A stretch of 39,928 bases of DNA from IMG/VR virus record IMGVR_UViG_2526164663_000052; one strand, 5' to 3'. The translations under genes and the position numbers were made by a program. The notes beneath the pieces were generated by a model that saw nothing but the letters and a program-made list of their open reading frames with translations, searched no databases and was not told the origin of the DNA. The stretch is from a virus. Its lineage: Duplodnaviria; Heunggongvirae; Uroviricota; Caudoviricetes. This document shows, one piece after another, positions 34,693 through 39,928 of this stretch. The stretch's first letter is position 1, and each line of letters begins with the position of its first letter.

Positions 34693-36741
34693 ATGACGTC
34701 CAAATGGGTTCAACTATCATCAATGCCCGGAAACTTTACTGTTAAAGTTTCCGGTGGTACAGCGGCATTTCTTGAGGCTCCCTTTCCTCCGGCCGAAACA
34801 AAAGGAGGAATGACATTTGCTGACTGTCTCATCAGTTTTAATACACAGGATTGCCTGTGGGTAAGGCCAGTATCCGGTGATCCGAACGTGGAAATTACCG
34901 GAGCGGGTATTGGTGCTGTCATTCCGTTAAGTGCTGATGTTGCCGGTACTACTGAACCGTCAGACTGGGATAATGCAGAAACACATACCCGTCCGGCAGG
35001 AAATGAAACGGCTTCCAGCTCCCCTTCCTGGTATTACGTGATTGTTATAGCCGGCCAGTCCAATGCTTCATCTTATGGTGAAGGGTTGCCCCTTCCGGAT
35101 TCTTATGATCGTCCTGATCCACGTATTATGCAGCTGGCACGCAGGAATACACAAACCCCCGGAGGTATTCCCTGCAAATACAATGAAATCATTCCAGCAG
35201 ATCACTGCCTTCATGATGTTCAGAATATGAGTCTGCTGAACCATCCAAAAGCAGACCTGAAAAAAGGGCAGTATGGTTGTGTGGGGCAGGGACTTCATAT
35301 TGCGAAAAAAGTATTACCGGTGATTCCTGCTGATGCCGGGATTTTACTGGTTCCCTGTGCCCGTGGCGGCTCTGCTTTTACAACCGGCGCAGTTGGCTCA
35401 TTCGATCCGGCAAGTGGTGCAGCCGAGGCGTCACTACGCTGGGGAGTGGATACCCCACTGTATCAGGATCTTGTCAGTCGAACTAAAGCGGCACTTGAGG
35501 CGAATCCAAAGAATGTGCTGTTATCTGTCGTATGGATTCAGGGGGAAGGAGACCTTAAAGCGACCCCGGCCCAGCATGGTGCCCAGTTTACTGCGATGGT
35601 GAAAAAATTCCGTGCGGATCTTGGTGCTTTCTCCGGTCAGTGTATTGGTGGTTCATCAGACAGTGTGCCGTGGTTATGTGGTGACACAACCTATGACTGG
35701 AAAGAGAAGAACCCGGCGGCATATGAAACCATTTATAGCGGATATAAAAACCGGGCTTCCGAGAACATTCACTTTGTTCCACTGATGCACGATGAGTTCG
35801 GTAATAAAACCGCGACCAACCTGCCGGAGCACGACCCGGATATCGCTTCTGCCGGGTATTATGGTGCGGAATCACGGGGAGATGGCAACTGGACAACAGC
35901 ATCCAGGGCAACCCATTTTAGCTCCTGGGCGCGCCGTTTTCTGGTCTCAGATCGTTTTGCATCAGCAATTCTTAAATATGCAGGTCTGACCTCTGCATTT
36001 ATTGCCGGTGTGGCCCCTGATGGTGAAGCCCTGCCTCAGCCCGCGCCGGGTGGGAAACCGGAAGCGCCGACAGGTAGTCAGCCAGGAGGCAGTGAGTCCC
36101 CCCATCCGACATCCCCGTCACTCCGTACGCTGCTTTCACTTAAAGCATCAGCAGGAGAAGCCCCGGCTCAGGGCTGGAAAATTACAGATGGTACAATCCA
36201 GCTGACGGACGAAGGTAAAGCGTTGACCGTATCCAAACAAAGCGGAAAAACCTGGACGCTTACCCATGGAACTGATGCAGCCGGTGAACTTCTGAAGCAT
36301 GGTGGTCAGTTGACCTGTAAATTCCGTCTGTCAGGTGAAGTAAAAGAAGGCCAGTTTGCTCTGGGTATTTACCTCCACACCGATACGGTCCCGGAAGGTG
36401 TAACCATGAGTGGTACAGGCACACCGTTCCTGATGGCGTATTATCTCCAGACAACAGGCGGCCAGTTAAATCTGATGCACCATAAAACAGGGGGGAATAC
36501 GAAACTGGGATCATTTGGAGCCTACAATAACCAGTGGCATACACTTGTCCTGAAGTTTACGGCGGGAAGTGCCCAGGTAACGCCTGTGCTGGATGGCACT
36601 CCGGGCCAGGCATTCCAGATGGTGAAAGATGCACTTTCCCCTGCCAAAGATACGCTGACACTGACAGATGTCACCAAAGGGGCAACTTATGGCGTGTCTT
36701 TTGAGAGCGTTGTCCTTGAGGTTAATACCCCTGCGGCATAA
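34693..36741 (+). CDS. Cargo gene: putative SGNH/SASA-family carbohydrate O-acetylesterase with a C-terminal beta-rich domain
   Basis: 682 aa. VIVIAGQSNASSYGEG (GQSN block), CARGGS and VWIQGEGD motifs resemble the sialate O-acetylesterase (SASA, NanS-type) family. Mu has no gene of this kind between gin and com. Confidence 0.5.
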   Translation: MTSKWVQLSSMPGNFTVKVSGGTAAFLEAPFPPAETKGGMTFADCLISFNTQDCLWVRPVSGDPNVEITGAGIGAVIPLSADVAGTTEPSDWDNAETHTRPAGNETASSSPSWYYVIVIAGQSNASSYGEGLPLPDSYDRPDPRIMQLARRNTQTPGGIPCKYNEIIPADHCLHDVQNMSLLNHPKADLKKGQYGCVGQGLHIAKKVLPVIPADAGILLVPCARGGSAFTTGAVGSFDPASGAAEASLRWGVDTPLYQDLVSRTKAALEANPKNVLLSVVWIQGEGDLKATPAQHGAQFTAMVKKFRADLGAFSGQCIGGSSDSVPWLCGDTTYDWKEKNPAAYETIYSGYKNRASENIHFVPLMHDEFGNKTATNLPEHDPDIASAGYYGAESRGDGNWTTASRATHFSSWARRFLVSDRFASAILKYAGLTSAFIAGVAPDGEALPQPAPGGKPEAPTGSQPGGSESPHPTSPSLRTLLSLKASAGEAPAQGWKITDGTIQLTDEGKALTVSKQSGKTWTLTHGTDAAGELLKHGGQLTCKFRLSGEVKEGQFALGIYLHTDTVPEGVTMSGTGTPFLMAYYLQTTGGQLNLMHHKTGGNTKLGSFGAYNNQWHTLVLKFTAGSAQVTPVLDGTPGQAFQMVKDALSPAKDTLTLTDVTKGATYGVSFESVVLEVNTPAA

Positions 36742-36798: not shown

Positions 36799-36978
36799 AT
36801 GACATATATAAACGTCTGCCTGCTGTATTTCTGCACGGTGGTTTGTTGTCTGTTGCTTGTCAGCGGTGGTTATAAAATTATTCGCAATTATTTTCGAAAT
36901 AAAATTGATGCAGCTGCCGAGGAAAAGATAAAAAGCGGTGCTGTAATGCCGCAGCCGAAAGACTCCGGTCAGATTTAA
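36799..36978 (+). CDS. Small hydrophobic protein (59 aa, below the ORF-track cutoff)
   Basis: ATG 36799 preceded by GAGG; translates to MTYINVCLLYFCTVVCCLLLVSGGYKIIRNYF... (one TM plus a charged tail). Confidence 0.4.
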   Translation: MTYINVCLLYFCTVVCCLLLVSGGYKIIRNYFRNKIDAAAEEKIKSGAVMPQPKDSGQI

Positions 36979-37013
36979 TTTTTTGTGAACCAGAAAAGGA
37001 AAGGAGAATATTC

Positions 37014-37259
37014 ATGCCAGAGATTAAAGGCACGGTTACTGAAGAGCTTGTCAAACAGGCACTTTATTCTGAAGAAGTGAACCGCGTGCTGAAGGCGCAG
37101 GTTCGCAAGGATTTTGAGGCACAAATCGACGCATATGTTGATGAAGTGCTGGCCCGAATGGTTGGTCGTTCTCCGGCTGAAAACAGCACGGAAAATGAGC
37201 CTCAACCCGTAGAGCAACCAGAGCCGGTTCAACCCGGAACTGACGGTACTATGATGTAA
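37014..37259 (+). CDS. Hypothetical acidic protein
   Basis: 81 aa; strong SD AAGGAAAGGAGA upstream; followed by a hairpin. Confidence 0.5.
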   Translation: MPEIKGTVTEELVKQALYSEEVNRVLKAQVRKDFEAQIDAYVDEVLARMVGRSPAENSTENEPQPVEQPEPVQPGTDGTMM

Positions 37260-37268
37260 CAATACCGA

Positions 37269-37288
37269 CCGGCAGGTTTCCCTGCCGG
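37269..37288. terminator. Hairpin between convergent small genes
   Basis: CCGGCAGG / TTTC / CCTGCCGG perfect stem-loop, between the + strand stop (37259) and the - strand stop (37298). Confidence 0.5.
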
Positions 37289-37297
37289 GTGAATTTG

Positions 37298-37468
37298 TTA
37301 ATGCACGTTTTGTGTATTTTCCCTCCGGGGAGAACAGGCCGGACATATCAGCATCCTGAAACAGGAAGCATTTTTTGGTTTGTATGTCTTGCCATTTTGA
37401 GATCGAGAACGGCGATAGATGAGCTGTAAGGGAGTCTTACAGGCAGGGCAAACAGGCTCTTTATCCAT
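37298..37468 (-). CDS. Small zinc-ribbon protein (CPAC...CPAC), 56 aa
   Basis: ATG at 37468 preceded by AAGGAG; translates to MDKEPVCPACKTPLQLIYRRSRSQNGKTYKPKNASCFRMLICPACSPRRENTQNVH. Convergent with the 37014..37259 gene. Confidence 0.45.
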   Translation of the reverse strand: MDKEPVCPACKTPLQLIYRRSRSQNGKTYKPKNASCFRMLICPACSPRRENTQNVH

Positions 37469-37689
37469 GATAAAGATCTCCTTTTTATGCATCTCTGCTT
37501 TACAGGAGACCGGGGAATATCATAGGATACGCCACGAGCTCGAAGTAAAGCATTGATGCAAGTTTTTACAGATTGACCCAGCATAGTTCCAGCTATGCTG
37601 GGTTTCCCTTTTATGTAGTATCCTGTTGATTTGAAACATACTACATATACGCGCGATCCTACCTTCACTGTATAAAAAGTCAATAAAAT

Positions 37690-37827
37690 GATCATTTTAT
37701 GATCGTTTTCACCACCTAACTCTTCGTTTCTTTAAGTAAATAATCACCGCCCTGAATCATTGTTGATGACTTTTAAATCTATTTGTTGTATCAATTAAAC
37801 AAATCGAATCGATCGTTTTTGTCGATC
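37690..37827. promoter_or_regulatory. Candidate mom-operon regulatory region with four GATC (Dam) sites in two pairs
   Basis: GATC at 37690, 37701, 37811 and 37824; the second pair sits in a near-palindrome AATCGATCGTTTTTGTCGATCGATT, ~50 bp upstream of com. The Mu mom promoter is known to be controlled by Dam methylation and OxyR. Confidence 0.5.
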
Positions 37828-37874
37828 GATTGCATGAGAAAGGCATCAACAACAAAGCAGGAGGTTATGCGGCC

Positions 37875-38075
37875 ATGTATCGAAACATACGGTGCCGACA
37901 CTGCAATAAGCTACTGGCACGGGCCAGTTTCAGTTATCTGGAAGTAAAATGTCCGCGCTGTAAAACCCTCAATCAAATCACATCTCCGAGCGCCACAGAG
38001 CACCCCACATACACAAGGAAATCCTGTCGTGGGGAACAGAAAGCAAGTCACATCCCGTATCATCAGCACGCCTGA
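37875..38075 (+). CDS. com: Com, zinc-finger translational activator of mom
   Basis: [14 protein letters not shown]...KCPRCK matches Mu Com (M..IRC.NCNKLL...RCPRCK) as I recall it; overlaps the start of mom. Confidence 0.8.
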
Positions 38076-38766
38076 ACTTATTCGCTATAACGACAATATC
38101 GTTGGTTATGGCTCCCGTGAGTTGCGGGTTGAGACAATAAGTTGCTGGCTGGCCAGACTGGTTATCGTCAATAAACATTACAGCCACCGTTTCGTAAATA
38201 ATTCCTACCTTCATCTGGGTATATTTTCAGAACGGGAACTTGTTGGCGTAATGCAATGGGGTTACGCCCTTAACCCAAACAGTGGTGCACGCGTCGTAAC
38301 GGGTACGCAGAACCGAGAATATATGGAGCTTAACCGGCTATGGATGCATGACTGTATGCCGAGAAACTCCGAATCAAGGGCAATCAGTTACGCGCTCAAG
38401 CTAATCAGGCAGCTTTATCCGCAGGTACAGTGGGTTCAGTCGTTTGCAGATGAGCGTTGTGGCTGTCTTGGTGTCGTGTATCAGGCAAGCAATTTTGATT
38501 ATGTAGGCAGCCATGAATCAACATTCTATGAACTTGATGGCGAGTGGTATCACGAGATTTGCAGGAGTGCCATTAAACGAGGCGGACAACGAGGTGAACA
38601 TCTGAGGGCTAATATCGACAGAGCCAGTGTGCATAAGTTCCGACAGTTTCGTTACATCCGGTTTCTGAACAAGAGGGCCAGAAAACGCCTCAACACAAAG
38701 CTATTCAAAGTCCAGCCTTACCCAAAACCACAAACAGTTAAAACTGGTTTGAAAGAGAGTGAATGA
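38029..38766 (+). CDS. mom: Mom DNA-modification protein (anti-restriction adenine modification)
   Basis: 245 aa from a GTG start overlapping com. It occupies the Mu mom position at the right end, immediately after com. Confidence 0.85.
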
Positions 38767-38812
38767 GCGCTTAAAAACTCATTCTAAAACTCAAAAGAAA
38801 AGCGCCGATTTA

Positions 38813-38880
38813 GTATCAAATAAGTTGCGTATCGGCGTTTTTCAGCGGTATCAAATGAAATGCAAATCGGTATCAAAAAA
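38813..38880 (-). repeat. Right end with three GGTATCAAA motifs (38813-38820, 38848-38856, 38869-38877), inverted relative to the left end
   Basis: Seen directly; mirrors the left-end motifs. The terminal 12 bp CGCCGCGCTATA resembles the Mu right end as I recall it. Confidence 0.55.
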
Positions 38881-38896
38881 ATCGCCGCGCTATATG

Positions 38897-39082
38897 CTGG
38901 CGTTGTTGTTGTGTCTGTTTTCCGGCGGGTTAGCGATGTATGGCTACCTGCGCTGGTTACGCAATGAAAAAGCGATGCGTCTGAAAGAGGACCTGCCCTA
39001 CACCAACAGCTTATTAATCATTAGCTTAATATTGATGGTCGTGGCGGTGATCGTTATGGGACTGGTGTTGTATGCCGGATAG
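38897..39082 (+). pseudogene. yidH: 3' part of disrupted yidH
   Basis: In frame LALLLCLFSGGLAMYGYLRWLRNEKAMRLKEDLPYTNSLLIISLILMVVAVIVMGLVLYAG, continuing the protein that starts at 1..165. Confidence 0.75.
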
Positions 39083-39434
39083 CCGCAAAGCCAGACGCAT
39101 TGCCGACCCAGGACTGCAGCCGGAGCGCACATCACTGGCGTGGTTTCGTACCATGCTGGGCTACGGCGCGTTGATGGCGTTGGCTATCAAACACAACTGG
39201 CACCAGGCGGGCATGTTATTCTGGATTTCGATTGGCATTCTCGCCATCGTGGCGCTGATCCTCTGGCACTACACCCGTAATCGCAATTTAATGGATGTCA
39301 CGAATAGCGATTTTTCCCAATTTCACGTAGTCCGTGACAAATTTTTGATCTCCCTCGCGGTGTTATCTCTCGCAATACTGTTTGCTGTAACGCATATACA
39401 TCAACTTATCGTATTTATTGAGAGAGTCGCATGA
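39072..39434 (+). CDS. yidG: Host inner membrane protein YidG
   Basis: 120 aa starting MPDSRKARRIADPGLQPERTSLAWFRT (DUF202-like), overlapping the yidH stop. Confidence 0.8.
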   Translation: MPDSRKARRIADPGLQPERTSLAWFRTMLGYGALMALAIKHNWHQAGMLFWISIGILAIVALILWHYTRNRNLMDVTNSDFSQFHVVRDKFLISLAVLSLAILFAVTHIHQLIVFIERVA

Positions 39435-39928
39435 CAGGAAGTCAGGTCATTGATGCTGAAGAGGACAGGCATAAACTGGTTGTAGAGTACAAGGATGCTC
39501 TGCAACCTGCCGATTTTTATCACAATTTCAAACAGCGGGGCATCCGCTCCGTACAGCTCATTCCCTATCTTGAATTTGATGACCGGGGCGATCTGACGGC
39601 CGCTTCGGTGACAGCAGAGCTGTGGGGGAAATTTTTAATTGCCCTGTTCGAGTGTTGGGTGCGGGCAGATATCAGTCGTATCTCGATTGAGCTTTTTGAC
39701 GCCACCTTACAAAAATGGTGTGGCAGCGAAAACCCGCAACCGCGCCGTGACTGCCAGGCGTGCGACTGGCATCGCCTGTGCCCGCACGCTCGCCAGGAGA
39801 CGCCAGACAGCGTGCTTTGTGCGGGCTATCAGGCGTTTTATTCTTACTCCGCACCGCATATGCGGGTGATGCGTGATCTGATAAAGCAGCATCGTTCTCC
39901 CATGGAGCTGATGACGATGCTGCGGTGA
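39431..39928 (+). CDS. yidF: Host protein YidF
   Basis: 165 aa ending at the window edge with a stop; Cys-rich C-terminus; gene order yidH-yidG-yidF. Confidence 0.8.
   Translation: MTGSQVIDAEEDRHKLVVEYKDALQPADFYHNFKQRGIRSVQLIPYLEFDDRGDLTAASVTAELWGKFLIALFECWVRADISRISIELFDATLQKWCGSENPQPRRDCQACDWHRLCPHARQETPDSVLCAGYQAFYSYSAPHMRVMRDLIKQHRSPMELMTMLR

Follow-up and report, generated by a model that had tools for sequence, protein, structure and literature searches.

A predicted zinc-ribbon gene beside com-mom converges on a DUF826 cassette in an Sp18-type Mu-like prophage of Escherichia coli

Background

In phage Mu, Com is a Cys4 zinc protein that activates the translation of mom. The control of Mu mom is layered and combines Dam and OxyR, the divergent promoter momP2, and a hairpin opened by Com (PMC3378877). 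Here, we analysed a Mu-like locus in which two small genes converge next to com and mom: an 81-aa open reading frame (ORF) on the plus strand and a 56-aa ORF of zinc-ribbon type on the minus strand. They lie at 37014-37468 of the IMG/VR virus record IMGVR_UViG_2526164663_000052, whose whole stretch of 39,928 nt is called the window hereafter. It represents a complete E. coli prophage, Mu-like and of the Sp18 type, as in O157:H7 Sakai; the Sp18 prophage of Sakai was described previously (PMC2669165).

For the plus-strand gene, the setting to compare is that of lambdoid Shiga toxin (Stx) prophages. Some Stx2a phage genomes were reported to carry ORFs with DUF826 and DUF1378 domains in the interval from nanS-p to the holin gene S (PMC10462455). 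The order of the genes –esterase, DUF1378, DUF826 (PF05696, PHROG 311)– is the same in our locus, whereas the position differs: the lambdoid cassette sits between stx and the holin gene, and the one in the window sits in a Mu-like prophage between a gin-like invertase gene and com-mom. Moreover, the lambdoid copies are not close to the window cassette at the DNA level.

For the minus-strand gene, the locus also encodes Com itself (PF10122), which is likewise small, basic, and of Cys4 type, and the hairpin around the start codon is a formal parallel. The zinc-ribbon gene, however, lies on the strand opposite to com, related prophages can do without it, and the knuckles of its product are 31 residues apart, against about 20 in the translation of the window com. 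Generic zinc beta-ribbons (PF13453, PF03966, TIGR03831) likewise have two CPxC knuckles split by a beta hairpin. The morons of temperate phages are similar in small size, own promoter-like elements, own terminator (in Salmonella), and transcription against the late genes. Their slot content varies between related prophages, as it does here; the promoter- and terminator-like elements of our locus are conserved, with an activity that is predicted only.

Results

The right end of the prophage carries, in this order, a gin-like invertase gene, the NanS-p-like esterase, DUF1378 and DUF826 genes, a hairpin, the zinc-ribbon ORF on the minus strand, an intergenic region of about 400 nt, com, mom, and host genes (Table 1). 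In the reading that we consider quite probable, two independent units abut at this locus, within the accessory right end of the Mu-like prophage (Sp18 type). The plus-strand unit would be the NanS-p/DUF1378/DUF826 cassette, with the 81-aa DUF826 ORF as its last gene and the hairpin at 37269-37288 as its own 3′ end or terminator. The minus-strand unit would be a stand-alone 56-aa Cys4 zinc-ribbon gene whose place, a variable cargo slot, lies to the left of the com-mom control region. Its transcription would probably run leftward, starting from conserved promoter-like elements and crossing a leader that is conserved and highly structured. In the window, this gene would end at the cassette hairpin, so that the hairpin would be a shared, probably leaky, two-way 3′ end.

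An initial annotation of the interval had proposed the two converging ORFs, each with a strong Shine-Dalgarno (SD) sequence, and had placed the minus-strand one, with its two CPAC motifs 31 residues apart, divergent from com. The ORFs were found where it had placed them, with a good SD each, and the zinc-ribbon gene is indeed divergent from com. The minus-strand frame is open from 37492 (64 aa), the ATG at 37468-37466 follows AAGGAG with a 9-nt spacer, and the stop codon is at 37300-37298. The 56-aa product, MDKEPVCPACK...CPACSPRRENTQNVH, presents the Cys ligands as C7/C10 and C42/C45, with 31 residues between C10 and C42, and has about 11 basic and three acidic residues.

The zinc-ribbon family is small. 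Word-indexed protein searches, two scans of species-representative genomes, tblastn of phage records, IMG/VR, and metagenomes retrieved near-identical E. coli copies only, and 5.8 billion clustered proteins contained just three near-identical E. coli clusters (P0001-P0003). The full HMMER scan of 1.84 billion representatives added to the E. coli copies one distant relative, protein P0004 of Salmonella enterica (53 aa, 47% identity, E 2.7e-7). P0004 retains all four Cys and shares with the window protein the initial MDKE, the two CPxC knuckles, GKTY(K/R)P, and CSP. Thus, a loss of the Cys pattern in homologous loci, the outcome that the initial annotation had set against the gene, was not seen. 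In complete E. coli genomes, the segment was found in about 201 of 5426, always with at least 95% identity and mostly in E. coli that produce Shiga toxin (STEC).

Sequence variation in this frame has the marks of a coding gene. Between E. coli and Salmonella, the coding sequence presents indels of 3 and 12 nt only, against gaps of 11, 1, 3, 2, and 2 nt in the non-coding stretch upstream. Identities by codon position were 0.62/0.73/0.42, and nonsynonymous divergence (pN) was 0.32 versus a synonymous one (pS) of 0.75, the latter being saturated. Among 27 E. coli copies (11 alleles), seven variable sites were synonymous and six nonsynonymous (binomial p = 0.013 against a baseline of 78% nonsynonymous sites; crude dN/dS ~0.25), and an adjacent double substitution, TCT CGA to TCC AGA, was synonymous in both codons. 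An earlier count on 20 copies gave a synonymous to nonsynonymous ratio of 7:5 in the zinc-ribbon frame and of 3-4 to 8-9 in the other five frames. The SD and the ATGGAT start are invariant in both species, and 36 nt that include the Cys7 and Cys10 codons are identical in 201 of 203 E. coli complete-genome records. On these signatures, the 56-aa ORF reads as a real, conserved small gene and a member of an undescribed two-branch orphan family.

The plus-strand gene is a member of a known family of unknown function, DUF826. It scored 56.5 bits against PF05696 (cut-off 25 bits), with residues 1-52 on positions 1-52 of the 75 in the profile, and the phrog_311 match covers its full length. Its SD, AAGGAG at 37001-37006, is 7 nt ahead of the ATG, and the NCBI Prokaryotic Genome Annotation Pipeline (PGAP) calls DUF826 in every Sp18-type locus fetched. 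The gene lies downstream of a NanS-p-type esterase, which PGAP names 'DUF6645 domain-containing protein', and of DUF1378. The interval 36990-37800 is 100% identical to E. coli strain 2014C-3307.

Between both genes, the initial annotation had described a 20-bp perfect stem-loop. The location and the perfect stem hold, whereas the length has to be corrected: the core hairpin is 20 nt in total, with eight pairs (seven of them G-C) and a 4-nt loop. The outer stem, TAACAA with TTGTTA, pairs the stop codons of the two genes with each other, and the whole structure reaches about -21 kcal/mol on either strand (plus strand z = -3.1, 3/200 shuffles as good; minus strand z = -4.2, 0/200). A terminator scan with a rule of five T in the eight positions after the stem missed it on both strands, where the tails are GTGAATTTGTT (plus) and TCGGTATTGTT (minus). 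The structure presents the GC-rich stem-loop of an intrinsic terminator, with no U-tract directly after the stem.

Sister cassettes point to the origin of this hairpin. A 60-80%-identical version of the cassette was found in 26 E. coli records. For the five listed ones, with 74-76% identity, the similarity to 37014-37300 covers the hairpin, reaching query position 275-283, and goes no further. The stems at the same place are CCGACAG/CTGTCGG (a compensatory change of G-C to A-T), CCGGCAG/CTGTCGG, and, in strain M1, CCGGTGG/CTGCCGG; the last two have G.U pairing in plus-strand RNA only. The cassettes of STEC2018-607 and FORC_069 present a proper T-run after the hairpin (TTTGATTTTC and TTTTATTTTC, respectively), and in the window this tail is replaced and the stop codon of the zinc-ribbon gene is 9 nt off. 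Since the similarity continues through the hairpin, the stems are kept, and the sisters have a T-run, the hairpin is the predicted 3′ end or terminator of the DUF826 cassette itself, reused by the converging gene.

At the protein level, the zinc-ribbon protein and its Salmonella homologue gave only sub-threshold matches to generic zinc ribbons in Pfam, PHROGs, NCBIfam, and PADLOC. These were Trm112p (PF03966, 17.2 bits versus a cut-off of 22) for the window protein, and Zn_ribbon_TFIIB (PF13453, 21.2 bits versus 22) and the YgiT/MqsA N-terminal zinc finger (TIGR03831, 14.2 versus 20.2) for the Salmonella one; the window protein had no match to TIGR03831 at E values up to 1. The AlphaFold2 model (predicted local distance difference test, pLDDT, of 71.7) has two beta strands, at residues 15-20 and 36-41, between the knuckles. 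By prediction only, this is the arrangement of a zinc beta-ribbon fold, two CxxC knuckles flanking a beta hairpin, and one zinc would be bound through C7/C10/C42/C45. Fold searches gave no significant match, and the weak ones were to ribosomal, TFIIS-like, integrase, and MqsA-type zinc ribbons, among them a phage 'MqsA' model (TM-score 0.58, E 0.8); a profile search of PDB sequences gave nothing meaningful. A Lar-like restriction alleviation protein was considered and discarded, with no PF14354 match and only a fold match at rank 26 (E 2). The protein does not belong to the Com family as defined by PF10122 (no match at E up to 1), and BLASTP against the window Com found only a non-collinear match of 13 residues at a knuckle (E 0.016). 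Small and strongly basic, it would be a nucleic-acid-binding or host-protein-binding accessory (moron-like) factor.

Table 1. Features at the right end of the prophage (window coordinates)
Feature	Position	Strand	Evidence and remarks
NanS-p-like esterase (SASA + DUF6645 domains), first cassette gene	34693..36741	+	PF03629 1.6e-13; PF20350 8e-26; phrog_143 2e-273
DUF1378 small gene, second in cassette	36799..36978	+	PF07125 9.2e-24; phrog_494 4e-29
DUF826 gene, third and last in cassette	37014..37259	+	81 aa, acidic C-terminal half; PF05696 3.1e-15; phrog_311 5.4e-30
Convergence hairpin	37257..37300	both	core stem-loop 37269-37288, CCGGCAGG-TTTC-CCTGCCGG; outer stem 37257-37262 / 37295-37300
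Predicted 56-aa Cys4 zinc-ribbon gene	37298..37468	-	CPAC-x31-CPAC; net charge ~ +8; SD AAGGAG 37483-37478
Structured leader (predicted)	37469..37650	-	four stem-loops; the last (8-bp stem, 37458-37476) holds the ATG in its 3-nt loop
Interleaved divergent promoter-like elements	37499..37549	both	plus TTTACA-18-TAGGAT (37499-37528); minus TTTACT-19-TATGAT (37549-37519)
Second hairpin with T-run, terminator-like	37575..37614 (hairpin 37576-37603)	+	13 pairs; tail TCCCTTTTAT; z -5.6; inside the minus-strand leader
Sigma-70-like promoter TTGACT-16-TAGGAT	37656..37683	-	promoter scan; Salmonella TTGACT-16-TAAGAT; candidate start of the long leader
com	37875..38075	+	PF10122 3.3e-12; phrog_13819 and phrog_6417 ~1e-12; PGAP coordinates; divergent neighbour of the zinc-ribbon gene
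mom	38029..38766	+	PF25680 8.5e-77; phrog_1384 1.2e-83

Upstream of the zinc-ribbon gene, the predicted leader (196 nt folded) has a minimum free energy of -68.2 kcal/mol, compared with -41.4 +/- 4.0 for shuffles (z -6.7), and is better conserved between E. coli and Salmonella than the coding sequence itself. Three compensatory pairs were counted, a number that 4 of 500 shuffles reach. The one-sided changes in this two-species comparison (helices 1 and 3, and a C-to-U in helix 5) leave G.U on the minus strand. This covariation comes from essentially two species and is suggestive only. The stem of the second hairpin is kept in three E. coli alleles and in the Salmonella allele. Rfam has no family for either hairpin or for the leader.

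Of the interleaved promoter-like elements, the plus-strand one was a scan match, and the minus-strand one, which failed the scan, was recognised by reading the sequence. Their hexamers are invariant in Salmonella, and the spacer differs at several positions with the same length. An inverted repeat (I2 in E. coli, I12 in Salmonella) contains the -35 boxes and has 41 nt between its arms in both species, and a long stem, 37488-37503 with 37545-37560, encloses the interleaved boxes. Besides, there is a conserved dyad at 37612-37647 on the minus strand. A GATC overlaps the -10 box of the sigma-70-like promoter, and two more are just upstream. In 37469-37874, six GATC were counted in 406 nt versus 1.4 expected (p ~0.002), five of them at matching places in the Salmonella locus (L023 5611-6000). 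We infer that promoters, leader and terminator work as proposed above.

Some further details of this region were observed. One of the GATC sites sits in the SD-ATG spacer of the zinc-ribbon gene. The plus-strand promoter-like site is followed about 50 nt on by the terminator-like hairpin, which could give an RNA of about 75 nt antisense to the leader. Just upstream of com, a perfect palindrome at 37807-37831, AATCGATCG-N7-CGATCGATT, contains two GATC. It is conserved in Salmonella and in strain M1, whose other upstream sequence differs, and is likely an operator or activator site of the com-mom promoter.

The stretch left of com is a swap-in cargo slot. In E. coli prophages that have DUF826 and com, it holds on the minus strand a 68-aa ORF in FORC_069 and STEC2018-607 and a 97-aa ORF in strain M1. 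In AST198, it has a plus-strand 66-aa ORF only, without any minus-strand gene. In FORC_069, the sequence again matches the window from 37491 on, immediately upstream of the SD, so the two prophages share the leader, with the coding cargo swapped. In Salmonella too, the zinc-ribbon gene is divergent from com; behind com lies mom in one locus and a cytosine methyltransferase gene (dcm) in the other. There the zinc-ribbon gene has its own canonical terminator with a U-tract, TTTTTCTGTT, with no esterase or DUF826 nearby and three unrelated ORFs on the same strand after it. The zinc-ribbon gene is dispensable and can be lost by the prophage.

Other observations concern the cargo. The 66-aa plus-strand ORF (78 aa from an upstream ATG) and the 68-aa minus-strand ORF converge with overlapping 3′ ends (L003 3574-3979; L002 4345-4545); neither has a family match, and the 68-aa ORF also begins ATGGATAAA. 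The three Salmonella ORFs are 100, 81, and 122 aa long (L023 6362-7274; L032 3923-4216). The C-terminus of the first resembles the 97-aa slot gene of M1, by eye only, and the third has a faint match to PADLOC PD-T4-7 (E 0.0025); the slot may hold defence-type cargo. A DNA cytosine methyltransferase gene follows com instead of mom in several related prophages (L020, L022, L023, L033, L034, L035), so the modification gene is swappable behind the same com. Host genes begin directly after mom (window 38759-39928), which puts the right end of the prophage near 38.8 kb; from their ORF translations, and by eye only, they resemble yidG, yidH, and yidF. The related prophages occupy many different chromosomal sites, as expected of transposing Mu-like phages.

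Discussion

At the annotation level, current RefSeq models do not contain the 56-aa gene. In the identical genome, PGAP gives 37298-37760 (minus strand) as 'hypothetical protein, frameshifted', and O157 strains and Sakai carry an intact 154-aa ORF, ECs_4996 / WP_115801860.1 (L004 1539-2003; L025 3127-3591). Taken at face value, these calls make the 154-aa ORF the true gene and the window copy a frameshifted pseudogene with a chance zinc-ribbon-like last third, which we find very improbable. The 154-aa frame exists only where two separate 1-nt insertions coincide, at 37463 (ATGGAT[G]AAAGAG) and in a T-run near 37712; if either is missing, PGAP calls a 'frameshifted' pseudogene. Its N-terminal 99 codons overlie the promoter-like boxes, the GATC sites, and three conserved hairpins with compensatory change, in a stretch with indels of 1, 2, 4, and 11 nt among E. 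coli alleles and with the gaps against Salmonella given above. The Salmonella locus has another frame open in the upstream stretch and shows no fusion, a gene caller gives the 53-aa product alone, and the SD and ATGGAT start are the same as in E. coli. The stretch upstream of the 56-aa gene is non-coding, and ECs_4996 and the 'frameshifted pseudogene' calls are probably artefacts of 1-nt indels in the leader; the gene model of the initial annotation is better than the present RefSeq ones. A further alternative is that the minus-strand ORF is not expressed and its conservation comes from constraint on an antisense RNA or a DNA element. Several degenerate alleles and the fact that gene callers seldom predict the ORF (P0001-P0003 only, among the clustered proteins) speak for it, and the ORF is known from its sequence. 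However, an RNA or DNA element would not maintain third-position divergence, in-frame-only indels, a frame-specific synonymous excess, four Cys kept at 47% identity, and an invariant SD and ATG, and we give this alternative a slim chance against a translated zinc-ribbon gene.

The initial annotation had suggested that the convergent pair could be a small regulator or a toxin-antitoxin-like module. As a functional pair, of toxin-antitoxin type or of regulator and target, the genes would be held together by the shared hairpin. They are tightly juxtaposed, with stop codons 38 nt apart that pair in one extended hairpin, and both are present in about 200 E. coli genomes. However, this co-occurrence reflects one nearly clonal prophage type, at least 95% identical, and each gene is found without the other: DUF826 and the hairpin without the zinc-ribbon gene, and the zinc-ribbon gene without DUF826. 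In the IMG/VR loci L009 and L010, the DUF826 gene has diverged strongly (88% overall identity for the 36990-37620 block), the zinc-ribbon ORF by two synonymous changes only, which places a recombination boundary at the hairpin. Neither protein matches a PADLOC model or, significantly, any toxin or antitoxin family of Pfam or NCBIfam, where their other matches were sub-threshold and unrelated to these families. Constant co-occurrence as one unit, as in toxin-antitoxin systems, was not found, and, to our knowledge, the convergent protein-protein layout corresponds to no toxin-antitoxin architecture of types I-VIII. A type I system, with its long leader and antisense small RNA, was also set aside, the protein being hydrophilic and basic and not a membrane peptide. 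With distributions and histories that are independent, a functional pair is hardly credible, and we reject it.

It is unlikely, too, that the protein is dedicated to regulating the neighbouring com-mom (com-dcm) module, or its own leader, as a second small zinc protein that would act like Com on DNA or RNA of the shared control region. In favor of this role, both species have the gene divergent from com, including the loci with a cytosine methyltransferase in place of mom; the protein is basic, Cys4, and of Com-like size; the control region is rich in GATC and full of dyads; and the start codon in a hairpin loop recalls the mom mRNA structure that Com opens (PMC3378877). On the other side, com-mom and a good part of the control region are retained in related prophages whose slot has another gene or none, so com-mom does not need the zinc-ribbon gene, and no collinear similarity to Com was found. 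In a more elaborate version, the gene would be a momP2-like leftward unit controlled by Dam, with a leader of about 180 nt, a hairpin-locked start opened by Com or by its own product, and the antisense RNA of about 75 nt (37499-37528 to 37575-37614). As with Mu momP2, which overlaps Pmom, a leftward promoter-like element and Dam sites lie upstream of mom. In Mu, however, 95 bp separate gin and com without any leftward gene, whereas in the window about 190 nt separate com from the candidate promoter, whose gene would code for a protein. Comparison with the gin-com region of Mu found no DNA similarity, so its mapped promoter and OxyR sites are not transferable by alignment. This version is a long shot; if true, it would be a second Com-style translational switch in Sp18-type Mu phages, competing with or timing mom expression.

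Several points weigh against two independent units with a functional zinc-ribbon gene as the reading we prefer. The family has two branches only, and its conservation is read from one distant comparison plus shallow polymorphism in E. coli. Some alleles look like loss of function –a C7Y lineage, an A-run one nucleotide short (1-nt deletion, L019), and a deletion of 11 nt that takes out the SD spacer (L005)–, so selection on the gene is not strict. In the O157 allele, the commonest one, the inserted G creates another ATG in frame (MKEP...) and shifts the start to it, at 13 nt from the SD; comparison with Salmonella shows that the MDKE form of the window is ancestral. No proper U-tract follows the hairpin on either strand, so termination there is assumed. 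Family, structure and context searches point to no specific biochemical function. Finally, the 56-aa ORF is known from sequence alone, and the ribosome profiling (RIBOseq) study of Sakai passed over the interval because it was already annotated as ECs_4996.

Even so, two independent units remain our preferred reading of this junction, and the finding has some consequences. An annotation standing since the Sakai genome of 2001 would be corrected to a 55/56-aa zinc-ribbon gene plus a non-coding leader, which concerns ECs_4996 as well as roughly 200 complete STEC genomes with the 'frameshifted pseudogene' call. What is new is an orphan family of two branches, linked to the control region of com-mom in Sp18-type Mu-like prophages. 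Layered gene control has a classic model in the Mu mom region, and a leftward gene that is conserved and has a structured leader rich in Dam sites is therefore a well-posed target. As it stands, the zinc-ribbon gene is an ordinary accessory small gene of a temperate phage, and not a new kind of system.

Published resources were also consulted. No text naming ECs4996 was found in the literature, and the zinc-ribbon peptide is not in the enterobacterial microproteome supplements. The Sakai RIBOseq supplements list no novel ORF in the zinc-ribbon interval, given its existing annotation. In the tables of that study (uninduced lysogen in lysogeny broth, LB), DUF1378 (ECs4994) has 30.8 and 54.1 reads per kilobase per million mapped reads (RPKM). 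com (ECs4997; NC_002695.2 5078705-5078905, equal to window 37875-38075) is transcribed and heavily translated, with 81.7 and 727 RPKM, a coverage of 0.98, and a ribosome coverage value of 8.94 in LB. Such strong translation of com in a lysogen stands out, given that Com activates the translation of a toxic late function.

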